Part shown: one piece after another, positions 20,073 through 39,001 of the stretch | Numbering within the stretch: the first letter of the stretch is position 1 | Layout: each line of letters opens with the position of its first letter | IMG/VR virus record: IMGVR_UViG_2799112742_000018 | Span: 32,001-96,000 of that record | From: a virus | Lineage: Duplodnaviria > Caudoviricetes | Strand: one strand, 5' to 3' | DNA length: 64,000 bases | The notes under the pieces: generated by a model | What the model was told of the DNA's origin: nothing | Seen by the model: the letters and a program-made list of their open reading frames with translations, nothing else | Databases searched by the model: none | Program-made: the position numbers and the translations under genes

Positions 20073-20296
20073 ATTAAATAATTTGTTTTGCTGTTTTAAG
20101 GATAATAGGGTTTATGCACATCATCTTGACTGTTAAAGAAAAGTTAAAATCTATAATTGTCTTATATACAGGTGTTTATATTTGAAGAAAAATTTCATGT
20201 AATAGGTGAAATATCTTTTAAGATTGGAATTATATAAGTTGGTGCTGGATGGATGTAAAAAGAAATAAGACCTATTATTAAGAAAATTACATAGTA

Positions 20297-21565
20297 ATGA
20301 AAAAGAGAAATTCAGTAGAATCGGGAGGTCAGTACTTTACAAGCAATGACCTTGTATCATACTACAACGAGACCAAGAAGACCATTCAGGACTACGTTGA
20401 TGAAATAAGAAGGCATTGTGGATACAAGACAGTCGTATCTCAAACTGCCGATGGAACTATCCTTGATGATCGAGGAAGACTGATGGATCTTTATGATTCA
20501 TGTCTCATGCAGGATGCACATCTCAGGTCTTGTATGGAAACATTGTATTCATACATTACTGGTGAAAGATATGCTCTCGGCACTATTGACGAAAGGGGTG
20601 AATTTGTCATTGATGTTGAAGAAACAAAGAAAGTACAGACACTTGATTTTGAGAAATTCATAATCGGTATTCAGGATGCTACGGCATACGGATATACATT
20701 GTTCGATATTTCCTCAAAAAGAAACCCCGCTACTGGACTTCCAGATTATATAGGTACGGTTGAGCGCCGTAATGTTCTTCCAAGTCAGAGACGAGTAGTC
20801 AAGACACAGGGACAATGGATGCCTGGTTGGGATCTTGATAGTGAGAGATATAAACACAACTATATCCTTATTGATACTTGTGGACTCGGTATGTTTGCCA
20901 CCAGTACACCTCTTGTATTGGCTAAGAAATATACCGTTTCAAACTGGGTAAATTTCAGCCATACATACGGACAGCCTATCATTCATGGCAAGACAACCGC
21001 AACCGATAATGAGAGTAGAAAGAGATTGGCGCAGAGTATTGTAAATGCAGCCCAGAATAAGGTTGTTGTTACTGGTACTGATGATGCTATTGACATCAAG
21101 ACATTTACAATGTCAAACTCTGAGAAAATATTCCAGAGCCTTATTGAGAATTATGCTAATGCCGAGATTTCAAACCTTATTCTTGGCTCTGAGTCTATGG
21201 CTGGCGCTACCCAGTCTTATGTGGGATCAACTAAGGCGCATGAGGATATTCTTAGGAGTAGAGTACGTAGGTATCGCCGTTTTATTGAGCAGACTATCAA
21301 TGAAAGAATACTTCCAGAATTGGTTTACTGGGGTTTCATCAAGCCTGGCCTTGTATTCAAGTATTCTAAGCAGCTTGATATGTCTGTTGAGGCAAAAACC
21401 GAGGTATTCAAAATGCTTACCGCAGCTTATGATGTGCCAAAGGAAACTATCAGAAATGAGTTTGGCGTTGAGGTAGGAGAGCAGATGAACCATAAGCAGC
21501 AGTTGGTAAGTAAAACCACTGGTAACGCAAATGCAAGGGTAAATTTTCTGAGGGGAAAGCAATAG
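20297..21565 (+). CDS. portal protein, DUF935/Mu gp29-like
   Basis: LMDLYD...DAHLRS, WVNFSHTYGQP and ANAEISNLILG; first gene of the head module. Confidence 0.85.
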   Translation: MKKRNSVESGGQYFTSNDLVSYYNETKKTIQDYVDEIRRHCGYKTVVSQTADGTILDDRGRLMDLYDSCLMQDAHLRSCMETLYSYITGERYALGTIDERGEFVIDVEETKKVQTLDFEKFIIGIQDATAYGYTLFDISSKRNPATGLPDYIGTVERRNVLPSQRRVVKTQGQWMPGWDLDSERYKHNYILIDTCGLGMFATSTPLVLAKKYTVSNWVNFSHTYGQPIIHGKTTATDNESRKRLAQSIVNAAQNKVVVTGTDDAIDIKTFTMSNSEKIFQSLIENYANAEISNLILGSESMAGATQSYVGSTKAHEDILRSRVRRYRRFIEQTINERILPELVYWGFIKPGLVFKYSKQLDMSVEAKTEVFKMLTAAYDVPKETIRNEFGVEVGEQMNHKQQLVSKTTGNANARVNFLRGKQ

Positions 21566-21597
21566 GCGGTACTGTTTTCCCAGACATAAAAGCCGCA

Positions 21598-22449
21598 TTG
21601 TCCGAAGATGAGGATGAGGAGAATAAGAAGAAAATGCTTGATCTTTTTATTGCCCTTATCAGATCTATGGGCAATGCAGATTCCCGCGAGGAAGCCCTGT
21701 ATCAATTAGCTGAATTGCGTACTGAGATTGCTGTGAATAGAGCTTTTGATGGATTTAATATTGAACCTGAAGATGCTCTTAGCTTGATACGTGAAATGGA
21801 TGTTACCAAGCTTTCAGAAGAAGATATTGAAAAGCGTAATGTTCTTATTGCGGCTATCAGTAATCTTATTGAATTTGCAACTTGTGAGGAATATCATCTT
21901 TATAAAGATGTAGAAGAGCAAGGCAAGGATTATACCGATGAGGACTGGATAGATGAAAATCTTGACGATCCTCTTTCGCCATTCCTCAATATTAACCATA
22001 AGTACAACGAGGTATATGCCGATGTGGAGGATTCTGATATAGAATACTCTATGGCTATGGCTTGGCTATGGGTAGTTGAGTGGGATAAGCATACTACTCT
22101 TACCTATATGACACAGAATGATGATCGTGTACGTCCCTGGCACTATGCGCTTCAGGGGTTTACGGCAAGGAGAGACGAGTTCCCAGAATGGATGATACCA
22201 CCTATTGAATGGGCTTGTCGTTGCTATCTTGTTGCTGAAACTGGAGTAAGTGCGAAGCTTGATCTTAATGTGATGGCAAAACAAAAGACACCTAAGAAAC
22301 CAAAGGAACTTGATGGTATTTTTAAGGAGTCTGTTTGTAAGTGTGGGCGTATTTTCTCTGATGAGCATCCTTATTTTCAGATTGATGATAAGGATGAAGA
22401 TATGCTGAAGGGGTTTGTTGAACGTTTAAGGCAGAAGTATTATGGCTAA
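21598..22449 (+). CDS. MuF/SPP1 gp7-like minor head protein
   Basis: YMTQNDDRVRPWH...PPIEWACRC; start ambiguous, and the frame is open back to 21526. Confidence 0.85.
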   Translation: MSEDEDEENKKKMLDLFIALIRSMGNADSREEALYQLAELRTEIAVNRAFDGFNIEPEDALSLIREMDVTKLSEEDIEKRNVLIAAISNLIEFATCEEYHLYKDVEEQGKDYTDEDWIDENLDDPLSPFLNINHKYNEVYADVEDSDIEYSMAMAWLWVVEWDKHTTLTYMTQNDDRVRPWHYALQGFTARRDEFPEWMIPPIEWACRCYLVAETGVSAKLDLNVMAKQKTPKKPKELDGIFKESVCKCGRIFSDEHPYFQIDDKDEDMLKGFVERLRQKYYG

Positions 22450-24050: not shown

Positions 24051-25313
24051 ATGAAACAAGAAGATTTGAAATTCGTAAAAGGAAGCGTTGAGCGTGGTAA
24101 GCCAGCTACAATATGCTTCTTCTCTGAGGTAGAGAAATGGAATGTCCAGGACTTTATCTGGGAGTTCAATTGGATTAAGGATCGCCAGCCTTCTGAGATT
24201 AAGGTTCTCATTAATTCTGTTGGCGGTAACTGCGTTGATGGTATCAGTGCTTTCTCTACTATCATCAATTGTGAAATTCCTGTTACCTGTGTCATCGAGG
24301 GTATTGCGGCTTCTATGGCTTCTATTATCTGGGCTGCTGGTAACAAGTGTCTCATGCGTGATTATGCTCTTCTTATGATCCATAATCCCTGGTCTGAGAA
24401 ATCAGATGATCCAGAAACACAGCGCACAATCGAGAATTTCACAACCCAGTTGAAGACTATTTATACCAAGCGATTCAAGATGGATGAGGAAAAAATTACA
24501 GCCATTATGAATGGTGAGGATAATTATGATGGAACATTCTTTACTGCTCAACAGGCAGTGGAGGCTGGCTTCATTACTGCTGACCAAATCATTGAGACTG
24601 GGAGTGTTAGCGCATCTATTGCAGCTAAGCTTGAAGGTGTCAGCAATTCTTCCGCTATCGTTTCTATCATGCAGGGTGCGATTGATCAAAATCTAAAAAG
24701 TATTGAGAGTCGCACTATTATGAAGAAAGAAGATAATTTGTTAAACAATAAAACAAACAACATGAATCAGGAATTTCTTACAGTAGCCGCACTTCTCGGT
24801 TTGACAGGTGAAAAGGCTAATGAGAGCGCAGTATCTGCAAAGATCCAGGATCTTGTTAAGGCTTCTAAGGAGCTTGAGACTCTGAAGGCTGAGAAGAAGG
24901 CTCTGGATGAAAAGGTATCTGCCCTCAACACTGAGCTTGCTGGTAGCAAGGCTTCAGTAGAGAATCTTACTAAGAATCTTAACGATGCTCAGGCAGCTCT
25001 TGACAAGTACAAGCAGGCTGAAGAGGCAGCACGTACAGCTTCTATCAACGCTATGATTGATGATGCTATCGCTGCTGGTAAGATCGGCAAGGATGCAAAG
25101 GACACATGGGTAGCAATGGCTGAGGAAAACTTTGACCTCGCAAAGCAGACTCTTGACTCTATCCCAGTACGTGAGGACATCTCTGCTCAGATTGCACAGG
25201 ATCCAACTAACAAACAGAAGACTGCCGAGCAGATGGCCGATGAAGAGGCTAAGGTAAAGGCACAGGTTGACGAGGTTGTTGGTAAGGATTTTGCGTTCCG
25301 TTCTCTCAAGTAA
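24051..25313 (+). CDS. ClpP-like prohead protease with C-terminal scaffold region
   Basis: INSVGG, GIAASMAS, LMIHNP and FTAQQAVEAGF; coiled-coil C-terminal half. Confidence 0.9.
   Translation: MKQEDLKFVKGSVERGKPATICFFSEVEKWNVQDFIWEFNWIKDRQPSEIKVLINSVGGNCVDGISAFSTIINCEIPVTCVIEGIAASMASIIWAAGNKCLMRDYALLMIHNPWSEKSDDPETQRTIENFTTQLKTIYTKRFKMDEEKITAIMNGEDNYDGTFFTAQQAVEAGFITADQIIETGSVSASIAAKLEGVSNSSAIVSIMQGAIDQNLKSIESRTIMKKEDNLLNNKTNNMNQEFLTVAALLGLTGEKANESAVSAKIQDLVKASKELETLKAEKKALDEKVSALNTELAGSKASVENLTKNLNDAQAALDKYKQAEEAARTASINAMIDDAIAAGKIGKDAKDTWVAMAEENFDLAKQTLDSIPVREDISAQIAQDPTNKQKTAEQMADEEAKVKAQVDEVVGKDFAFRSLK
24762..25313 (+). CDS. nested in-frame scaffolding protein
   Basis: Internal ATG after AAACAATAAAACAAACAAC, with a CTATTATG motif at 24715. 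Confidence 0.55.
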   Translation: MNQEFLTVAALLGLTGEKANESAVSAKIQDLVKASKELETLKAEKKALDEKVSALNTELAGSKASVENLTKNLNDAQAALDKYKQAEEAARTASINAMIDDAIAAGKIGKDAKDTWVAMAEENFDLAKQTLDSIPVREDISAQIAQDPTNKQKTAEQMADEEAKVKAQVDEVVGKDFAFRSLK

Positions 25314-26913: not shown

Positions 26914-28278
26914 ATGGCAACAACAAGACTTGGTGGTGTCTTCATGAATGACACCGATGGTAATATTGCAAAAGGCGCTGCTGTCAGCACTGAGAATGTG
27001 TGTGGTCTGATTTTTGATACTAAGGGATTTTCCAATCCTCTCGGTTCAGGAACTGCTGCTACCACATTTGCTAATGGCAATGTTGTGGAGCTGAATACCT
27101 CAAAGGATATTGCGGCTGCTGGTATTGATGAGAACGTAATGTGTGGTCTTCCTTACTACCACCTCAAGATGTTCTTTGAGCTTGCTGGCGAGAATCAGCG
27201 TATCTTCGTTTCCTTCATGGACTCTCAGGCAGATGCTAACTTCGATGCAATTCAGGTTATGCAGGCTGCTGCTGATGGTGTTATCTATCAGATTGGCGTA
27301 TGGACTGCTGAGCCAGTAGCAACAAAGAATGGTGAGAACTTCACATTCACCACTCTCTACACAAAGCTTCAGACTGCTGCCGAGGCTCTTGGTGGTAAGA
27401 TCGGTGTTCCTAACCTTGATGGTAACTCTCCAATCAACATCATCCTCAATGCACCAGTAGTTACAGACCTCGTGGTTGACTACACAAAGCTTCCTGAGAT
27501 CAGTTCTCTCAACTTGCCAAAGGTAACTCATATCCTTGGCCAGGAGGCTAACGAGACTGAGGTTCGTCCTATCCAGCTTGCCCTCATCAATGCTCTTGGT
27601 GACACTAAGGCTGTTCAGGTAGGTAACGTAGGTGCAGCTCTCGCTGTCCTCGCAGTAGCACCAGCAGACGTAAGCATCGCTTATGTTCGTGACTACAACC
27701 TCTCTGGCGCTATGCAGTCATGTGAGCTTGGTTTCGGTAGTATCATTCTTGATGGTGAGACAGCAGGCGAAAAGACATTCGCAGCAGCTTGCTCTTTCAA
27801 TAACATGAAGAGCATCACCTATCAGAAGCGTAACGAGAAGCTTCACCAGAAGGGGTATGTATTCCTCACACCAGTTGAGGGTATCCAGAATGGCGTATTC
27901 TTCAGCTCTGACATGACAATGAGTGAAGGTGATTATCGTAGCATCTCTCGCTGTCGCGTAATGCACAAGAGCCGCCGCGTTGTACGTCAGGCTCTTCTCA
28001 ACAAGATCAATGCTCCTGTAATGCTTGATGCTTCTACAGGTCAGATGAGTTCTGCTGACATCACAGAGTATCAGAACACTGTTCTTTCAGCTCTTGATCT
28101 CAACATGGTACAGCCAGGTACAGGTAACTCACAGATCAGTGGCCGTAGCTGCGCAATTGATCCTGAGCAGAACATCATCGCTAATGATGAGCTTCTGATT
28201 GAGTACTCTCTCGTACCAATCGGTTGTACAAGCGTTATCACTGTGACTGAGGGCTTCGTAGGTGCTGTTTCTGAGTAA
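26914..28278 (+). CDS. tail sheath protein, DUF2586-like
   Basis: YYHLKMFF, QIGVWT, KGYVFL and GDYRSISRCRVMHKSRR; directly before the tube gene. Confidence 0.85.
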   Translation: MATTRLGGVFMNDTDGNIAKGAAVSTENVCGLIFDTKGFSNPLGSGTAATTFANGNVVELNTSKDIAAAGIDENVMCGLPYYHLKMFFELAGENQRIFVSFMDSQADANFDAIQVMQAAADGVIYQIGVWTAEPVATKNGENFTFTTLYTKLQTAAEALGGKIGVPNLDGNSPINIILNAPVVTDLVVDYTKLPEISSLNLPKVTHILGQEANETEVRPIQLALINALGDTKAVQVGNVGAALAVLAVAPADVSIAYVRDYNLSGAMQSCELGFGSIILDGETAGEKTFAAACSFNNMKSITYQKRNEKLHQKGYVFLTPVEGIQNGVFFSSDMTMSEGDYRSISRCRVMHKSRRVVRQALLNKINAPVMLDASTGQMSSADITEYQNTVLSALDLNMVQPGTGNSQISGRSCAIDPEQNIIANDELLIEYSLVPIGCTSVITVTEGFVGAVSE

Positions 28279-29656: not shown

Positions 29657-30940
29657 ATGGCAACAAAGTTAGGCGGTTTTAGTACTGGCACTATGGTCAG
29701 CAAGCCAGAGATAAGGGTTCCAATAGATGAATCTGTCTGTGGCATGATATTCGACATAGCAACAAGGGATAATATATTCTCAGGATATTCTAAGGCAAAA
29801 GTATATTTTGAGGATAATCAGGTTCAATGTATCAATAATGTAGATGAAGCCATCAGTCTCGGAATTGCGAAATTCGGAGTACTGAGTGGTGTGCCTTACT
29901 ATCATATTGAGCAGTTCTATAACTATGTCGGACATGATGCTAAACTCTATATTATGTTTGCCGACATAACAAATTCAAGTGTTGAAAATTCACCACTTGA
30001 GATAATGCTTACAGAAAGTAATTGCGAGGTGTTTCAGATTGGTATCTGGACTGAAAGTAACATATTCAATAAGCAAGATGACAATATTGTGTTTTCTGAC
30101 ATAATATCAAATATCCATGCTCAATCTCAGCAAATCAAAGGTACAAGCGAAGCACCGACATCATATCCATCAGCAGTTAATGTAATTGTCTGTGGAGGTC
30201 TCGGTGCTGGGGATCTTCATAAGAGTGACATCAATTATAAGAATCTACCAGATTGTACAGATATGAACTATGAGCTTCTATCTATCATCATCGGTGAATG
30301 CACAAATACTTCTGTCTTACCAATTGCTGATGATGCACAAGTAGGCATGATTGGTCTTGTAATGGGATGTCTTGCCACATGTGGTGCTGAGAATAGTATT
30401 GCCTGTGTAAAGGACTTTAATCTTAACAGAGATGATACATTTGCCAGTGCTAAATTGGGACTGGGAAGTGACGGAACTAATATAACAAATATTAATCGTA
30501 TTCAAGCTTCCATTCTTGCTCTGAAGGGATACATATTCCCAACAACATACGACTCTAAAGAAGGAGCTATATATCTATGCAGTGATAGCACAATGTCTAT
30601 GGGCGATTATGGATCTATTAGCAGTAATCGTATAATTGACAGACTGAGAAGGATCATGCGTAGAGCATTAGTTCCTATGATTAATGGTAGAATCGTTTTT
30701 GAAAAGAGAATGGATACCATATCTCAGGCTTCAATTACTGAGATAAAAAATAACATGAAGGATGCTATTGATACATATATGATAAATACCGAGGGACAGT
30801 CTCAGTTATCTGCTTATGAAATCAATATCAATAGTTATCAGCCAAAGGCTAAGGATGATCAAATTGAAATAGAAATTGCCTTTGCATATCTTGAGAGTGA
30901 AAATGTAATTAGTTTTATTGAACGCTACAATACTAAGTAA
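29657..30940 (+). CDS. second tail sheath-like protein (DUF2586-like paralogue)
   Basis: Colinear similarity to 26914-28278: MATKLGG, VCGMIFD, PYYH, QIGIWT, KGYIF and GDYGSISSNR. Confidence 0.8.
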   Translation: MATKLGGFSTGTMVSKPEIRVPIDESVCGMIFDIATRDNIFSGYSKAKVYFEDNQVQCINNVDEAISLGIAKFGVLSGVPYYHIEQFYNYVGHDAKLYIMFADITNSSVENSPLEIMLTESNCEVFQIGIWTESNIFNKQDDNIVFSDIISNIHAQSQQIKGTSEAPTSYPSAVNVIVCGGLGAGDLHKSDINYKNLPDCTDMNYELLSIIIGECTNTSVLPIADDAQVGMIGLVMGCLATCGAENSIACVKDFNLNRDDTFASAKLGLGSDGTNITNINRIQASILALKGYIFPTTYDSKEGAIYLCSDSTMSMGDYGSISSNRIIDRLRRIMRRALVPMINGRIVFEKRMDTISQASITEIKNNMKDAIDTYMINTEGQSQLSAYEININSYQPKAKDDQIEIEIAFAYLESENVISFIERYNTK

Positions 30941-30942
30941 TT

Positions 30943-33900
30943 ATGGCTGGAATATCACAGACAAAAACATACGGAGTAAGCTATGTTATTAATGGTGATG
31001 CTTCAAAACTTACAAGCGCCTTAACAGGAGCTAAAGAACAGGCTTCCCTTCTCAGTGATGCTCTTAGTGGTGCCCGCACAAACATGCAGGCTTTGTTTGG
31101 ACATGGATCTAATTTAACTGAGTCTTTTGAAAAACTAAATAAATTTTATAGTGAGGCTATAAAAGCGCAGAAGTCAGGACAAAGTAATGCTCTTTCAACC
31201 AGCGCTAAATTATCAGAAGATTTAACTAAAAAAACAAAAGCATTACGAAAGCAACTTGAAAGTAATCCGATAATTTCAGAAAAGGGACTAATTGGTGCTA
31301 ATATTGTTAAGAGTATTCAGAGCCAATTAAATGCTCATAAGTTTGGAATAACGGTAAGTCCAATATTGTCCGCTAATGCACAGGTAACACTTCAGGAACA
31401 ACTAAGCAAGTTGAGCCTAACCGTTAATGTTCAGCCAAACTTTAATAAAGCTAAGGATACTAAAAAAGGCGCTAACGCAGTATCCCCATCTCAGAAGAGA
31501 ACCTACACGTCTCCAACAGCTAAGGCTTCCGCTAATTCTTTGGCTCAAATTAGACAGGAACTTACTCAGCTTCAGAACTACATAAAGGCAAATCCTCTTA
31601 CTGGTAACTTCCGCGTAAACTACGGAGAAAGCCGCACTCAGGTTCAGCGTATTATCGGCAATCTGAGACAATATGCTATGACCAAACCTATCAGGGTTCC
31701 TGTAGAGGTTGTATGGGGTAATGCTGGAGGTCAACTTCAGAATATATTATCAGGTCTTCAGAGTTTTGCTAATGGACATGGCATAAAGACAACGGCAAAA
31801 GTATCAGGAACTGCTACAGGAGGCAGTACAGGTACTGGATCAACACTTACTGATGAACAGAAAAAAGAGTCTGCAATAAGGTCTGCTGCCAGATCTAAAT
31901 GGTCTTCTATGTTGGATAAGCAATTGGGTAATTACTATCCAGGATGGAAAGAAGAGCAGATGGCTAAATATGATAAGTGGGCGGCAAAATTTCCAGGAAT
32001 GGCTGGAGCAGAAAGACTTCAGAATTTTTCTGAAAATTATCGTCAACGCCAACTTCGCCAGACATCATTGGATAAAGCCAACAAGCAGGCAGAAAGGATA
32101 GAAAAACAACATCAAGCAAATAAGCAGAGGGTTACTGACTCTGTAATGCGTGATATTGAGAAGAGCAACAGAGCTGAAATAAAGGAAAAAGAAAGACTTG
32201 CAAGGGAAAGCCAAAAGGCGCAGGAAAGAATTGCAAGAGAACAGGCTAAGGCTCAAGAAAGACTTATAAAGGAGCAGGAAAGGGCTGCTCAAAGACAGGC
32301 AAGAGAGCAGGCTAAGGCTCAGAGAATAGCACAACAGAGAGCCAATGCCCAGCGTTATGTTCCTGGAGGCCCTAATGGGCCTATTCCTCCTGGTAGCAGA
32401 GGTGATATATACACCAGAATGCGTAAGTCTTGGTATCCATTTACAGGAAACACCTCATTTGGCGCTCGTACCCCAATGGCTCTTGATATGGCCAAGGGTA
32501 TGGGTATGATGTTCGCTGTCAGTGGTGTAATGCAGGCTGTGACAAGCTCTTTCCATCAGGTAGCTGAATACGAGAATATGATGAAGACCGTACAAGCTAT
32601 CCTGAAGACTAATGATGGCGGCGCTAACTTTAATGGTCGTTTCAAGGCTATGGAGGAAGAGGTTCGTAGGGTAGGGCGTGAGACTAAGTTCACAGCCCCA
32701 GAGGTTGCTGGTGCTGCTCGTTTTATGGCTATGGCTGGTCTTGGTATTGAGGATATTAATGCTGCTACCAACCCTATCGCTAACCTTGCTCTTGTTGGTG
32801 ACAATGATATGAGTACAACGGCTGATAAGATGACCAATATTATGACATCTTTCGGCTTGTTGAAGGGACTTAGTGCTGCTCAGAAGAAAGCTAATATGAG
32901 GCATACTTCAGATATTTTGACAAATACTTTTACAAAGTCAAATACTGATCTTATGCAATTGGCAGAGGCTATGCAGTACGCTGGCCCTATGTCACATCTT
33001 ACAGGTACATCCCTTGAGGATGCTGCCGCTATGGTTGGTGTCATGGGTAATGCTGGTATTCAGTCTTCTATGGCTGGTACTACGTTGCGTATGATGTACC
33101 AGAATATCATCAAGCCTAACAAGAAACAGGCTGCTGAATGGAAGAGACTTGGTATCAATACTAAGGATGATCAGGGCAGGAATCGTGACATATTTGAGAT
33201 ACTGAAGGATCTCCGAGCAAAGATTACTGGTACTACGGATTTGAATAGTAAGGTTGGAGCTGACCAGTTAAAGATAATGGGTGCTGAGGTGATGTCTCTC
33301 TTCAGAACAACTGCTGGTGCTGGTACTGCTGCTTTGCTTGAGAATCTTGGTGAGGCTATCAATCTTGCACAAAGTAACCGCGAATCTAACGGTGTTGCAC
33401 AGACTATTGCCGATGAGAAGAAGAATACTATCTCAGGTCTCTGGGCACAGGTAACATCTACATTCACAGATCAGAGTGTTAATACTGTGAATGAATTTGT
33501 CGAGACTATTAAAGATATGCTTCGTAATTTGAGGGATTGGCTTGCTTCTAAGGAGGCTGCCAATACTCTCAAGGAAATTTATTCTTTGGCAAAAAGTTTA
33601 ATTGAAGTTTTCGGAAGTGTTGCTAAAATATGGTTGGGAATATATAATTTTGCACCAAGTGTTGTAAAATTCTTTATTTCTTTCCAGTTATGGGCTACAC
33701 AATTAGGCTTCCTTGCTACACCTATTATACAGGTAACTGGCGCAATAGCAACATTAAAAAATACATTATTGGGATTATTAGGAGTATCAACCACTGTATC
33801 TGGCGGTCTTGCAAGAGGTATGGGAGGATATTTGCCTATTGCGGCCAATGGTATTGGTGTCAGTAGAATTGCACAATCAAATATTGATAATGGTGGTCTT

Positions 33901-36330
33901 GTTCTTGCTAATATTCAAGGTGGAAGAAAAAGAATACCAGAAAGTATAAGACAGGATATGATGGCATATAGGGCTGCAAATTGGCCAAATAATATGTCTT
34001 CTTATGCTATGGGTAGAGATCGTGTAAGGAGTTTAACAAAAATTTATAAAAATTTTGATCCAGCAGCTTATGGAACTATGGCTGTTGGTACTGGCGCTCT
34101 TACTGCAAATAATATTGCGCGTTTTTACAATGGAAATGCAAGTCTTCCAAGCGCACAATTAGCAAGGCTTCAAATGAGAAATATGCTTGTTAAGGCAGGA
34201 AGAGAAACAAACGCATTACGTCCTTCAAATAGAATCCCAAGATATTACAATACTGCTGGTATTACAAGGGTTATGCCATTCTATCAGTATGCAAACAATA
34301 GTAATGCCGTATTGTATGGTGGTACAGCAATAACTTCATTGGCAGATACATATAGAAGAAAATCTGGCCAATATAATACATTAGCTCTTAGACTTTCTCC
34401 TGACGATAAAAGAAGAGGAGAATTGTTTGCTAAGGCAAATAAAATGATGAGAGCTGCTGATGTAGCTGAAGCTGCACAGAAAAAAGCACGTAAAGATGCA
34501 ATATTCGCAGCAGCAGCAAAAAGACACGCTACGAGAACTATTGGTAATGATGTTCTTCTTCGTGGAATGTCAAGGGGAAAATTTGGATATGGGGGAGCAT
34601 TTGGCGCTGCCTTACAATCTGGCATAGCTATGGGGGCATGGAGTGGCATTAATGGTATCAAACAAATTTTCCAATCATTAAGTCTTTATCTTGCAAAAGG
34701 AATAGGCCTATTAATGAGTCCAGTGGGTGCTGTTACCGCAGGATTAGTAACATTAGGTGTAACTTTATACAAAGTTTATGAACATGTAAAAGAAGTAAAC
34801 AGACAACATGAGGTAGCAATAATAAACTATCAGAAAATGTCAGACGCATTATCTAAAGATAGGGAAAATCTTATTAATATGGGTAATGCTATTGGTGGTT
34901 TTAGTGTAATTAATTCTGGGTATCAAAGAGAGATGTCTTCTACCCCAACATCTTATACCCTTCCAACAGAATATACAAAGGGTATATTGAATGACACAGG
35001 TAAATTATTACCAAGTGAAATTGTTAAAAGCTATGTTTCATTATATGGTAAATATTTACCAAGCGGAACAATAGAGACATTCTTGAAACGTACACCAGAT
35101 TATACATCAATGTCAAATTATGAGGATCCACATGATTTGTTTGGTGGTGCTACGGTAAAAAATGAAAAGGGCAGCAAAAATGCTCAAAGACTTGCTGTTG
35201 TTGCTCAATGGGCTAAATTTGCCACAGAGCAAGACGATGTTCAGAAAGCAGCCAGGGCTATTCTTGAGGCTCAGTCAAAGGGTGATCTGAAACAAGTTCG
35301 TGCAATTCTTGATCAGTTTAAGGTTCCAACAAATGCCAAGAGCATGTTGAGCATGAATAAGAATGCGGAGGAACTTTCAAAGCTTGAAAATGCAGACAAA
35401 ACATTTGAGTTTATGTATGCTCAGCTTAATTATCTGAAAGAAATAGCTGACAAGATGGATATTCCTATTCAGAATTACACTAAGGCAATGGAGTTAATAG
35501 ATGAGTTATCTAAACAAAAAGGAAAGATTTCCTCAGATAGCATCAAGGAACTGTCAACAACATTGTTAAAGGCACAATCTGTATCTTGGAGAGGTAAAAC
35601 AGGTTCTCTTATACTTGGTAAGGATAATAAAGTTGATTGGCTTGCAATGGCTAAACAATTTAATGAAAGTATTCCTTTTACATTGGCTGAACAACAGCAA
35701 ATCATGTATGATGCACTTGACAATATATTTGATAATGAAAATATGGATAAGATTCCTGAAATAGCAACTTTGGTAGCGAGATACCTTCCATTACTTCAGA
35801 ATCTTACACCATTTGATAGTAACGGTTTATCATATACTTCTAACTCTATCCAATCCGTAGCTAACAAAATCAAAGATTCACAAAAGCATTTTACTGGTAT
35901 GGCTTCAGAGAATGCTGATGAGCGCGAGTCAATGGTAAAGAATATAATGCAATGGATAAGATCAAGAAAAGGAGATAGGGGGCAGGATTTAACACAGCAA
36001 AATATTGACAATCTATATGCACTATTGAAAAAATGGGGATATGATAAAAAGGGACATAAAATAGTTGCTCCTGAAAAGAATACATCCATTACCCCTCCAG
36101 GCACTTCAGATCAGTCTGCATACGATTCTAAATACAACAATCATCAGGCTCGTCCAACGCAGATTATCTTTGATATTGATAATCTTGTTAAATTCGACAA
36201 TACTCAAGTCAATAGTTTGGATCAAAAGGGTATTGCAGAATCCGTTGGCAGACAGATGGCTGAAGGTCTTCATTTGATGTTTGCACAAGCAGCTTCTGAA
36301 TTTGGAATCGTCGCAGAACATAACGGATAG
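30943..36330 (+). CDS. tape measure protein, TP901-type core
   Basis: 1795 aa; TKFTAPEVA, SNTDLMQLAEAMQYAGP and GNAGIQSSMAGTTLR. Confidence 0.92.
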   Translation: MAGISQTKTYGVSYVINGDASKLTSALTGAKEQASLLSDALSGARTNMQALFGHGSNLTESFEKLNKFYSEAIKAQKSGQSNALSTSAKLSEDLTKKTKALRKQLESNPIISEKGLIGANIVKSIQSQLNAHKFGITVSPILSANAQVTLQEQLSKLSLTVNVQPNFNKAKDTKKGANAVSPSQKRTYTSPTAKASANSLAQIRQELTQLQNYIKANPLTGNFRVNYGESRTQVQRIIGNLRQYAMTKPIRVPVEVVWGNAGGQLQNILSGLQSFANGHGIKTTAKVSGTATGGSTGTGSTLTDEQKKESAIRSAARSKWSSMLDKQLGNYYPGWKEEQMAKYDKWAAKFPGMAGAERLQNFSENYRQRQLRQTSLDKANKQAERIEKQHQANKQRVTDSVMRDIEKSNRAEIKEKERLARESQKAQERIAREQAKAQERLIKEQERAAQRQAREQAKAQRIAQQRANAQRYVPGGPNGPIPPGSRGDIYTRMRKSWYPFTGNTSFGARTPMALDMAKGMGMMFAVSGVMQAVTSSFHQVAEYENMMKTVQAILKTNDGGANFNGRFKAMEEEVRRVGRETKFTAPEVAGAARFMAMAGLGIEDINAATNPIANLALVGDNDMSTTADKMTNIMTSFGLLKGLSAAQKKANMRHTSDILTNTFTKSNTDLMQLAEAMQYAGPMSHLTGTSLEDAAAMVGVMGNAGIQSSMAGTTLRMMYQNIIKPNKKQAAEWKRLGINTKDDQGRNRDIFEILKDLRAKITGTTDLNSKVGADQLKIMGAEVMSLFRTTAGAGTAALLENLGEAINLAQSNRESNGVAQTIADEKKNTISGLWAQVTSTFTDQSVNTVNEFVETIKDMLRNLRDWLASKEAANTLKEIYSLAKSLIEVFGSVAKIWLGIYNFAPSVVKFFISFQLWATQLGFLATPIIQVTGAIATLKNTLLGLLGVSTTVSGGLARGMGGYLPIAANGIGVSRIAQSNIDNGGLVLANIQGGRKRIPESIRQDMMAYRAANWPNNMSSYAMGRDRVRSLTKIYKNFDPAAYGTMAVGTGALTANNIARFYNGNASLPSAQLARLQMRNMLVKAGRETNALRPSNRIPRYYNTAGITRVMPFYQYANNSNAVLYGGTAITSLADTYRRKSGQYNTLALRLSPDDKRRGELFAKANKMMRAADVAEAAQKKARKDAIFAAAAKRHATRTIGNDVLLRGMSRGKFGYGGAFGAALQSGIAMGAWSGINGIKQIFQSLSLYLAKGIGLLMSPVGAVTAGLVTLGVTLYKVYEHVKEVNRQHEVAIINYQKMSDALSKDRENLINMGNAIGGFSVINSGYQREMSSTPTSYTLPTEYTKGILNDTGKLLPSEIVKSYVSLYGKYLPSGTIETFLKRTPDYTSMSNYEDPHDLFGGATVKNEKGSKNAQRLAVVAQWAKFATEQDDVQKAARAILEAQSKGDLKQVRAILDQFKVPTNAKSMLSMNKNAEELSKLENADKTFEFMYAQLNYLKEIADKMDIPIQNYTKAMELIDELSKQKGKISSDSIKELSTTLLKAQSVSWRGKTGSLILGKDNKVDWLAMAKQFNESIPFTLAEQQQIMYDALDNIFDNENMDKIPEIATLVARYLPLLQNLTPFDSNGLSYTSNSIQSVANKIKDSQKHFTGMASENADERESMVKNIMQWIRSRKGDRGQDLTQQNIDNLYALLKKWGYDKKGHKIVAPEKNTSITPPGTSDQSAYDSKYNNHQARPTQIIFDIDNLVKFDNTQVNSLDQKGIAESVGRQMAEGLHLMFAQAASEFGIVAEHNG

Positions 36331-36369: not shown

Positions 36370-37470
36370 ATGGCATCATTATTCCAGAACTTATCCGTAA
36401 CCGCTATACCAACTGTAAATTATGCGTATGACATAGTATCAGGCTATGCCATACGCACTCTTAGTAATAAGATGGATGAGATCATCAATGGTAAGAGGCA
36501 AGTCAGATTCTACTATAGGAGAGATAACAGATCATTCTTTCAAGTATTGGTGGATTCTGCCCTTCAGTATGCTTCTACAGAATTGAAGAATGCCATGTAC
36601 AAAGCGGTTAGGGATAAGTTTCAAAAACAAAGAAAAGAGGAATATGTCAATCTTGTTAAGGATCGTAGAAAAACCAAACTGGTAAGTAGTGGTAATCTTC
36701 AGATACGTAACTATGGTGTGATGACAGTCCCCATTGTTGATGAAAAAAATAAATTTGGAACAATTGAATGTAAGGATACTTATGGAAATAGTTGTAGTGA
36801 TGGTTTGATGTTGAAAATACCAACAAACTACAATGTCAAATACACAAGGTATCAAAATTATGTTTCACACTATGATACGGTATCAGTATCCGTAGGTAAT
36901 AATAAAGATATAGAGTCAACCTTTGAGTCTAAGTATCTTGTCTGGAGCGATGCTACCTCAATGATAACTTTTCAGAGCAATAAGAATACAATTATAACAC
37001 CAGTTGTCGGCAGAGACTATTCTCGTAAGGAGCTTGCATCTAATGGTGATATAAAGTTCTCAGTATCAGGTCATATACTTTCAGGAATGGCTGAGGTGTT
37101 TCCTACAGAACAGGTACAGAAATTCATCCAGATAATGCAGTACAAAGGACTTATTGAAATCAACAATATTCTCCTTGATCAATTTGGTATTGAAAAGATA
37201 CTTGTACTTGATTTTAGCATTACACCATTGGAAGGAACAAAGTCTCAGGTGGACTATTCATTCAATGCAATAGGTATCCAACCAAGACATGAAATTGAAA
37301 TTACCGATGATACGCTATACTTGGATGACATTATATTTAATATGCAGACATCTGATGAAGAGGATGCTTGGACTAAGTGGTTCAATGCAAAGGCTGAGGG
37401 TACTGCGTATTCTGTTATTGAAGTTCTTGATACTGGTATCAATGCCGCTATCAACAAAATCCATATCTAA
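36370..37470 (+). CDS. baseplate/tube initiator protein, DUF6046-like
   Basis: KNTIITPVVGRDYSRKELASNGD; directly after the TMP gene. Confidence 0.7.
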   Translation: MASLFQNLSVTAIPTVNYAYDIVSGYAIRTLSNKMDEIINGKRQVRFYYRRDNRSFFQVLVDSALQYASTELKNAMYKAVRDKFQKQRKEEYVNLVKDRRKTKLVSSGNLQIRNYGVMTVPIVDEKNKFGTIECKDTYGNSCSDGLMLKIPTNYNVKYTRYQNYVSHYDTVSVSVGNNKDIESTFESKYLVWSDATSMITFQSNKNTIITPVVGRDYSRKELASNGDIKFSVSGHILSGMAEVFPTEQVQKFIQIMQYKGLIEINNILLDQFGIEKILVLDFSITPLEGTKSQVDYSFNAIGIQPRHEIEITDDTLYLDDIIFNMQTSDEEDAWTKWFNAKAEGTAYSVIEVLDTGINAAINKIHI

Positions 37471-37471
37471 T

Positions 37472-39001
37472 ATGCCAGATTATAACAATATACAAACATA
37501 CGGACAGACACCGAAATATATAGTAAGGGGACACAATGATGATCTCCTTGCTATTATGTTCTGTGAGATTAAGATATGGAGAGCTACTAAGGAAGACTGG
37601 TGGACACCTAAAGACTATATTCGTCTTACCGAGGTTGAATCCATAGATATTCAGAAATCATATAAGAAAATTATCCAGAAAGCAACCGTAAAGTTTCCGC
37701 GAGGCACTGTTGTAGGACAAAGAATAAGCGATACAAAAAAAGATGAAAAGGTATCAACAGGAAACAATACGGATGCAAAAGAGGAAACATCTCTGATAGA
37801 ATCCACCAATTATGGTGAGGTTATAGTTCCAGGCTCTGCAACCAATGTAATAAATGCTTTTCGTAAGGATGATGGTATTATTATTGTTGGTAGAAATGGA
37901 GAACAGGAGTTTAAGCCTAAGATGATAAGTACAGGAGATAGGATTGAGATTCGTCTTGCTTATGCTTATTCTGAAGATGAATATACATTGTATAAGAGTG
38001 GAAAGATACAAGGACACCTGGAGTTCTCAGGTTTTGTATCTAAGTGTTCCGTAAGCACACCTCTAATTCTTCAGTGTGAGGATATGATGTCTATTCTAAA
38101 GACCTTTTCATGTCCTGATAATGTGGCTAAGAAGAACTATACCGTTAATGATTATCTTTGTGATGATGGTATATTCAAGCTGTTAAAAGGAACAGGGCTG
38201 AAGATTGACGATGATACAAAAGCAGCAAAGATAAATGTCGGCAGGGTAAATATGACAAATGACCTTGTTGTTGCTGACATTCTTGATGAGTGGTCTAAGT
38301 GTGGCTTGTATGCCTATATGAATGAAAATGATAATTTTAGAACAATCAGAGTAGGCAGAGTTTATACTTCAGGGTTTAATTTTGGTAAGAATGGAAATGT
38401 CGTTCAGGCTCAAGCTGGCGTTCATATTATTCAATTTGATTGGGATGTTGCTAATGATTCTCTTGATGTTGTTGAAAGAGATAAGCGATACCTTGCTATT
38501 GAATGTAGTGGCATGAAGGCGAATGGCACATATATTAAGTTTACTATTAGAAAGGATAAGGATGATAACTGGGATGTTATTAACGAGCGAGATAATATTC
38601 AGGCAAGGACTGGTAGAAAAACAACTGATAAGACTGCCAGTGTTCAAGGTGTAAAGATGCAACACCCACCTAAAATAGATCTTTCAGACTATAATAAAGT
38701 AAGCTATATTTCACCAACAAACCCAATAACAAAAGATAAGCTGATAAGTGAAGGCAAGGCTTATTATGAGAAGTTCAATCCTAATGGTGTATCTGGAAAG
38801 CTTACTATATTTGGTGACAGATATATAAAACCAACGGATACCGTAGGATTATTAGATATGAGACACCCAGAAAGAAATGGCTTCTATTTTGTTTCTGAGG
38901 TTAATACAAAGTTCAGTGTTTCAGGAGGTTTTAGAAGGGAATTAAGCATACCTTATAGACTTGCTAAGTTTCCAAAAGATCAACCGATAACCATTAAGTA
39001 A
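37472..39001 (+). CDS. baseplate hub protein (late control D-like)
   Basis: GDRIEIRL, EFSGFV, LQCEDMM and GVSGKLTIFG; likely start MPDY at 37472. Confidence 0.8.
   Translation: MPDYNNIQTYGQTPKYIVRGHNDDLLAIMFCEIKIWRATKEDWWTPKDYIRLTEVESIDIQKSYKKIIQKATVKFPRGTVVGQRISDTKKDEKVSTGNNTDAKEETSLIESTNYGEVIVPGSATNVINAFRKDDGIIIVGRNGEQEFKPKMISTGDRIEIRLAYAYSEDEYTLYKSGKIQGHLEFSGFVSKCSVSTPLILQCEDMMSILKTFSCPDNVAKKNYTVNDYLCDDGIFKLLKGTGLKIDDDTKAAKINVGRVNMTNDLVVADILDEWSKCGLYAYMNENDNFRTIRVGRVYTSGFNFGKNGNVVQAQAGVHIIQFDWDVANDSLDVVERDKRYLAIECSGMKANGTYIKFTIRKDKDDNWDVINERDNIQARTGRKTTDKTASVQGVKMQHPPKIDLSDYNKVSYISPTNPITKDKLISEGKAYYEKFNPNGVSGKLTIFGDRYIKPTDTVGLLDMRHPERNGFYFVSEVNTKFSVSGGFRRELSIPYRLAKFPKDQPITIK

Follow-up and report, generated by a model that had tools for sequence, protein, structure and literature searches.

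A candidate programmed -1 ribosomal frameshift at the portal-MuF junction of phages of gut Bacteroidales

The stretch of DNA analysed here (64,000 nucleotides [nt], hereafter the window) comprises positions 32001-96000 of a single 114,064-bp contig, the IMG/VR virus record IMGVR_UViG_2799112742_000018 (Duplodnaviria; Caudoviricetes), and our subject is the junction between two of its head genes, which code for the portal and for a MuF-like head protein. The portal gene (20297-21565, plus strand) encodes a Mu-type protein of 422 amino acids (aa), of which residues 63-391 match the full Portal_Mu profile (PF06074, DUF935; positions 1-336) with an E-value of 9e-51 and 173.6 bits, the cut-off being 23.9. 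Its 3' end reads GTA AAT TTT CTG AGG GGA AAG CAA TAG, the stop codon lying at 21563-21565. The MuF gene lies directly 3' of the portal gene in the head module, as expected for the Phage_Mu_F/SPP1 gp7 minor head proteins, and is read in the -1 frame relative to the portal. This frame has a TAA at 21523-21525 and ends with the stop at 22447-22449; as a preliminary description of the locus had stated, it is open from 21526 onward and contains its first ATG at 21634. Taken from 21547, the trans-frame open reading frame (ORF; 21547-22449, plus strand) counts 300 codons and a stop, and consists of an 18-residue disordered linker (21547-21600) followed by the MuF-like head protein. Its assignment relies on a match to Phage_Mu_F (PF04233) that is marginal but consistent (30.7 bits for a cut-off of 29.6, profile positions 65-111 only), on a match to PHROG 220, 'minor head protein and DNA pilot' (E 1.3e-6), and on its homologue in BS-TP1, an isolated temperate Bacteroides phage (host B. 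salyersiae BG8), which is annotated as a Mu F-like domain protein. The trans-frame product can be aligned across 40 relatives, the linker and N-terminal domain included.

Relatives of the portal were surveyed at 50 IMG/VR loci, 71 loci in GTDB genomes, BS-TP1 and 80 loci on metagenome contigs; at each locus (numbered with the prefix L below) a script was used to find where the portal gene stops, in which phase the MuF homologue is read and which in-phase heptamers are present. The GTDB loci come nearly all from Bacteroidales chromosomes or metagenome-assembled genomes (MAGs), among them Bacteroides, Alistipes, Phocaeicola, Prevotella and Muribaculaceae. Portal identity of the relatives to the window ranges from 48 to 62%, and the window portal is the longest branch of the portal tree; searches of IMG/VR, GTDB genomes, metagenomes and INPHARED gave no portal relative above approximately 60% identity. 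MuF is in the -1 frame in 93 of the first 122 loci.

The last portal codons of the window contain two heptamers of the form X_XXY_YYZ in phase with the portal frame, a point of the preliminary description that is confirmed by reading the sequence. The first, A_AAT_TTT (21541-21547, plus strand), consists of the last base of codon 415 and the Asn-Phe codons 416-417; the second, G_GGA_AAG, lies at 21553-21559 of the same strand. In-phase heptamers with A or T as Y occur at 0.0017 per codon in the long ORFs of the window, so that 0.017 would be expected in the last ten codons of a gene. Only A_AAT_TTT is shared with the relatives. Among the IMG/VR and GTDB loci whose MuF is read in the -1 frame, 92 of 93 have it in phase, each time 22 or 25 nt ahead of the stop codon of the portal; among the metagenome loci the count is 51 of 54. 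When identical junctions are counted once, 64 of 65 carry it, compared with 4.6% expected given Asn-Phe (calculated from how these portal genes use their codons, whatever the preceding codon), and the third base of the preceding codon is invariably A, even though nine amino acids (V, A, E, K, T, S, G, Q and L) are encoded there. The constraint on the heptamer thus acts on nucleotides rather than on protein. The -1 frame is open from the heptamer onward in all loci of this phase, and in more than 13 of them a -1-frame stop directly precedes the heptamer. All exceptions belong to one lineage of four contigs (L026, L178, L180 and L181) with G_AAT_TTT, which retains the hairpin described below, the -1 phase, the open frame, the U_UUU tetramer and a P-site re-pairing compatible with G-U (for instance L026:3439-3502); G_AAT_TTT may be either a tolerated weaker slip site or one where the shift depends on the U_UUU tetramer. 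The motif A_AA.U_UU.U falls in the class H_HH.U_UU.Y, whose members, given a stimulator, rank with the most efficient -1 motifs of Escherichia coli (PMC4066793).

Downstream of A_AAT_TTT in the window, a 5-nt spacer (CTGAG, 21548-21552) separates the heptamer from a predicted stimulatory hairpin (21553-21581, plus strand; RNAfold). In this hairpin, GGGAAAGCA (21553-21561) pairs with TGTTTTCCC (21573-21581) through 9 bp including one G-U, around an 11-nt loop (21562-21572) that holds the portal stop codon; its predicted free energy is -12.2 kcal/mol (z-score -2.4), a value reached by 4 of 200 shuffled sequences. A hairpin is predicted at the equivalent place in all 65 unique junctions, built from 47 distinct stems, with the core stem starting 2-6 nt past the heptamer in all of them and at the modal distance of 5 nt in 33. 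Between clades the stems differ in sequence, examples being GGAAGGAGAA/TTCTCCTTCC, CGAGGTGCGGT/ACCGTATCTCG, GGGAGCGGAA/TTCCGCTCCC and GGGGAATGGAA/TTCCATTCCCC. The minimum free energy (MFE) of the 45 nt past the heptamer has a median of -17.6 kcal/mol, compared with -7.0 in 2,600 random windows of the same genes, 1.2% of which reach the junction median.

Covariation was tested in two ungapped sub-alignments of sequences sharing one stem register, since an ungapped MAFFT alignment of all clades placed the 3' arms out of register. Paired cells amount to 84% and 83% in the two sub-alignments; sliding the partners lowers these figures to 39-57% and 51-68%. The covariation score is 0.31 in the first (shuffled 0.18, slid partners 0.06-0.13) and 0.38 in the second (shuffled 0.21), and in both none of 500 shuffles reaches the observed value. 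A covariance model built on one clade and run over 70 loci returned many true junctions together with spurious minus-strand matches inside the portal, and was excluded from the pair counts. Judged from these alignments, the pairing is kept with compensatory changes even though the sequence varies between clades. An intrinsic terminator was also considered for the hairpin and rejected, as no U-tract is present 3' of the stem.

Natural controls are provided by loci in which the gene after the portal has a start codon of its own; among the first 122 loci, 29 have such an ATG at the portal stop, and heptamer, hairpin and -1 phase are missing from all 29. In 18 loci MuF is read in the +1 or 0 frame from an ATG at most 8 nt from the portal stop; Asn-Phe is there mostly written AAC TTC, A_AAT_TTT occurs in none of the 18, and the equivalent 45 nt fold with only -0.3 to -6.4 kcal/mol. 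Eight further loci (L060, L064-L066, L071-L073 and L120) carry a different gene after the portal, of about 195-205 aa, with its own ATG and a product beginning M(R/I)ITLE(Q/E)FC; they have neither heptamer nor hairpin, and the portal tail is without the Asn-Phe-Leu motif. In two loci, L058 and L061, a +1-frame MuF whose ATG overlaps the portal stop coexists with an in-phase A_AAT_TTC in the last 30 nt of the portal and with no hairpin. The A_AAT_TTC of this clade looks like a relic of an ancestral cassette.

The programmed -1 frameshift that the preliminary description had proposed at this junction is therefore strongly supported by comparative evidence, and we put the probability that it is functional and yields a portal-MuF fusion at roughly 85%. 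Most ribosomes on the portal mRNA would stop at the TAG at 21563 and release the 422-aa portal. A fraction would pause with the Asn- and Phe-tRNAs on A_AAU_UUU, hindered by the hairpin 5 nt downstream, slip one base back and go on translating in the MuF frame. A slip at this site gives a product of 417 + 300 = 717 aa, the length of about 717 aa announced earlier, made of portal residues 1-417, a flexible linker of about 45 residues and MuF. As almost the whole portal is present in it, the fusion should join plain portal subunits in the dodecameric ring, which would place a few copies of MuF inside the capsid at the portal vertex; it would then either stay intact or be cut by the head protease encoded just downstream. 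That the shift occurs, its efficiency, the co-assembly and the later fate of the fusion, intact or cut, are what we infer, and the frameshift may likewise set the stoichiometry of MuF. The C-terminal crown of known portal structures points into the capsid. By analogy with gp7 of phage SPP1, which sits there when bound to the portal, MuF may be placed at this crown; in SPP1, loss of gp7 lowers infectivity.

Structural models give some shape to this proposal. The AlphaFold model of MuF, built on 40 relatives, has a mean predicted local distance difference test score (pLDDT) of 88.8 and a predicted template modelling score of 0.88; residues 1-18 are below 50 in pLDDT and the first helix spans residues 13-39. 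We observed that the protein (21547-22446) is predicted as a long helical N-domain and a small domain with an invariant His and a Cys-x-Cys (consensus IPPIEHGCRCYL). A Foldseek search of the PDB with this model gave no match at E <= 0.001, and MuF appears, on the strength of the model, to have a fold for which no structure is solved; sequence searches of the PDB with the portal, the portal profile and MuF were also without matches. The portal monomer model is weak (pLDDT 61.4) and thus unsuitable for structure search, and in it residues 388-422 are disordered. From the two models we predict a flexible tether of about 45 residues, formed by the disordered portal tail and trans-frame residues 1-18, that links the final helix of the portal to the initial helix of MuF.

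Several points weigh against a functional frameshift. Translation in Bacteroidota differs from that of E. coli, and efficiencies measured in the latter are therefore not transferable. Two coding frames run through the 5' arm of the hairpin, and part of its conservation is therefore at the protein level; the hairpin of the window is among the weakest of the family and unconvincing on its own; and the sequences of the covariation test were grouped by their own best stem, which biases the test towards structure. In the window, MuF could be started independently at the first TTG of its frame (21598-21600, trans-frame residue 18) or at the first ATG (21634-21636, residue 30), and free MuF may therefore also be made. 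In the annotation of BS-TP1, the sole isolated relative, portal and MuF are distinct genes with a gap of 113 nt, and virion mass spectrometry is not reported in the paper describing it (PMC12694917). For all members of the family, the literature searches yielded no peptide, band, reporter or ribosome-profiling data.

The alternative that best survives, although we consider it improbable, is built on some of these points: no frameshift takes place, MuF is translated on its own, from the TTG or ATG just mentioned in the window and from unusual starts elsewhere, and the heptamer and hairpin have another role, for instance in the stability or processing of the mRNA, or in coupling or attenuating translation between the two genes. 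Starts do occur soon past the portal stop in the window and in some relatives, as with the ATGA overlap of the L018 clade, the BS-TP1 annotation agrees with it, and since Shine-Dalgarno sites are not needed in Bacteroidota such starts are hard to exclude. However, the TTG at 21598 is not conserved as a start in the relatives, and the ATG at 21634 lies inside the predicted helix 13-39 and aligns within the relatives' conserved EY..L.AF helix, about 17 residues after the beginning of the MuFs that have their own start. When the translations from the slip site in the -1 frame are aligned over all clades, the linker and the N-terminal helix are conserved, and own-start MuFs begin some 20-30 residues past the slip-equivalent position. 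In the clades of L095, L076/L086 and L077, no ATG, GTG or TTG is reached until 150-230 nt past the portal stop, inside the conserved N-terminal domain of MuF, so that a canonical start cannot give a complete protein. Independent translation also leaves unexplained why an in-phase heptamer is kept at synonymous sites, why its spacing to the hairpin is fixed, why the -1 frame is open from the heptamer and, in more than 13 loci, closed just before it, and why heptamer, hairpin and -1 phase vanish together where an ATG adjoins the portal stop. The signal is conserved, it co-varies with the phase of the downstream gene, and many relatives have no usable start.

A second alternative, which we rate slightly lower still, accepts the frameshift and places it in the window mainly at G_GGA_AAG, stimulated by a downstream GCGGU...GCCGC pairing, as the preliminary description had partly suggested. 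This heptamer is in phase and identical to the site of lambda G/GT, the motif G_GG.A_AA.G is listed among the efficient ones in E. coli (PMC4066793), and the 5-bp pairing, 6 nt downstream of it, can form after the main hairpin melts. The preliminary description had named conservation of a heptamer and of the -1 overlap in relatives as a check, which held for A_AAT_TTT and the -1 phase but not for GGGAAAG: at the junction the latter is found in the window only, among 111 scored loci, L109 having a chance GGGAAAA in its arm, and the relatives available for this comparison reach about 60% identity at most. GGGAAAG is moreover part of the 5' arm of the hairpin common to all relatives. The stem GCGGT...GCCGC, also suggested earlier, can form but is weak (-8.4 kcal/mol, z-score -1.4, 22 of 200 shuffles as good), and the stem shared by the family is the one at 21553-21561/21573-21581. 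G_GGA_AAG is thus probably not the operative slip site; conservation points to A_AAT_TTT, the sole heptamer kept in the relatives, as the site that operates.

A still less credible alternative is slippage of RNA polymerase on an A/T run, which would generate a minority of mRNAs one base shorter or longer that encode the fusion. In its favour, ten consecutive A stand at the equivalent junction of the Bacteroidota phage Peternella_1, a type of tract on which polymerases slip. The AAATTTT runs of the family consist of three A and four T, far under the lengths known to support transcriptional slippage (reviewed in PMC5009743), and the RNA hairpin 5 nt downstream and the X_XXY_YYZ phasing are ribosomal signals. 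The weakest explanation, that a portal-MuF fusion gene was broken by a sequencing or assembly indel or is degenerating in a prophage, can be rejected with near certainty: although such indels do occur, as shown in metagenome data by one contig of coverage 1.0 (L136) with an extra downstream frame change, some 70 distinct junctions agree in phase, in the position of the stop and in their signals, and come from isolates, complete chromosomes, MAGs, viromes and a plaque-forming isolated phage, with both ORFs otherwise intact and conserved.

The arrangement in Winogradskyella phage Peternella_1 (MT732475; L124:3536-3664), a distant marine relative, deserves description of its own. Its portal-like gene ends in the ten-A run followed by AGT CTA AAA AAA GTG GTC TAA, and the -1 frame is open from the run into the annotated MuF/'portal' gene, whose annotated start is 99 nt downstream. 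We read this as a putative slip signal of a different kind at the same junction, in a phage of marine Flavobacteriia. The Flavobacterium phages lotta8-2 and FPSV-S27 have ordinary ATG starts.

In the maximum-likelihood tree of the portals, the frameshift state is found on both sides of the midpoint root, in 69 of 88 rows, and the other states form four nested clades; 4 state changes are needed, compared with a mean of 18 when states are shuffled. Most simply, the cassette would be ancestral, and an ordinary start would have taken its place on several occasions, with the heptamer, hairpin and -1 phase being lost together. A broader proposal, to which we would give somewhat less than even odds, is that in most lineages of this large family of phages and prophages of gut Bacteroidales MuF has no independent translation at all. 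The frameshift would then be its sole route of synthesis, every MuF would enter the capsid tethered covalently to a portal subunit, and the efficiency of the shift would set how many of the 12 portal subunits carry one. Such packaging would be comparable to that of Gag/Gag-Pol and ancestral in the group, a separate start having supplanted it more than once.

In tailed phages, the tail chaperones are the textbook case of programmed frameshifting, which is also known for a few capsid genes; we know of no case in a phage portal. The preliminary description had likewise known of no account of frameshifting at a portal-MuF junction, and our full-text literature searches found no report of it, the PRFect paper included; in the accessible part of the recoding review by Atkins et al. 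(2016) the word 'portal' is absent. The closest parallel is gpG/gpGT of phage lambda (Levin et al. 1993; Xu, Hendrix and Duda 2004, cited in PMC7302621 and PMC7911831), also a -1 frameshift in a pair of phage structural genes, with an in-phase X_XXY_YYZ near the end of the upstream ORF, a downstream -1 ORF without its own start, a short and a long product in fixed ratio, and a signal conserved across very divergent phages. In contrast to G/GT, which are tail chaperone genes between the major tail (tube) and tape measure genes, the genes concerned here are those of the portal and MuF in the head, a covarying hairpin is present, and the long product is expected in the virion, the long G/GT product being a chaperone absent from the particle. 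The portal-MuF pair would thus function like G/GT without being a member of that family: the logic of the cassette is that of lambda G/GT, dnaX and Gag/Gag-Pol, and the gene pair is new.

As the preliminary description had said, genetic fusions of portal and MuF exist; they are found in Microbacterium phages of clusters EA3/EA5/EA8 and EB (PMC7302621). They unite both domains within a single chain, in the order proposed here, and show that a portal with a C-terminal MuF is viable, the likeness resting on domain order and not on sequence comparison. There, however, a single ORF fuses every subunit, while in the window the zero-frame stop is kept and the fusion would come only from frameshifted ribosomes. 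In phage SPP1, the MuF-family protein gp7 enters the procapsid in few copies by binding the portal gp6 (PMC6316719); the placement through the portal is alike, but gp6 and gp7 are separately translated and bound non-covalently, and the link proposed here would be covalent, through recoding. Retroviral Gag/Gag-Pol (PMC5009743) similarly has a major assembling protein and a minor, C-terminally extended form made through a heptamer and a structure, the extension entering the particle by co-assembly in a set ratio; as it involves eukaryotic ribosomes and unrelated proteins, the analogy is one of strategy only. T7 gene 10A/10B and the major head protein of Lactobacillus phage A2 (PMC10885494, PMC12846349) are alike in using a -1 frameshift near the end of a head gene to produce a minor head component with a C-terminal extension. 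They add a short or accessory segment to a capsid protein, whereas here a whole conserved 300-aa product would be appended to a portal.

If the frameshift is real, a widespread and unannotated portal-MuF protein of about 80 kDa would be present in abundant Bacteroidales phages of human and animal guts, which would account for the 'start-less' MuF genes and the 'intergenic' gaps of 100-230 nt in annotations. It would offer a concrete, testable mechanism by which an internal head or pilot protein is counted and positioned, in low copy number, at the portal vertex, and would give gene callers and frameshift predictors a new conserved case to train on, in which the stimulator covaries cleanly. The lineages with a natural ATG of their own are ready comparison strains.

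The 114,064-bp contig has a G+C content of 39.3% and three tRNA genes, and in size and gene content resembles BS-TP1, whose genome measures 111.7 kb (PMC12694917). The head module of the window runs in the order portal, MuF, two unknown ORFs, a ClpP/Mu-I head protease (24051-25313) and a capsid-like protein, followed by two tail-sheath paralogues. As seen at 20073-20296, the portal is the first gene of a rightward structural operon, and the genes just upstream lie on the opposite strand; the terminase is therefore not adjacent to the portal, as in BS-TP1. The tail-sheath family PHROG 907 is matched by two separate ORFs, at 26914-28278 and 29657-30940, and the phage thus seems to carry two sheath paralogues. 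An ORF of 1,795 aa (30943-36330) lies 3' of the sheath-like ORFs; target genes of diversity-generating retroelements, of about 2,000 aa, have reportedly been seen in BS-TP1-like phages. Further along, two long ORFs on the same strand and in different frames (36370-37470 and 37289-39001) overlap by about 180 nt, which could reflect a mis-placed start or a further candidate for recoding.

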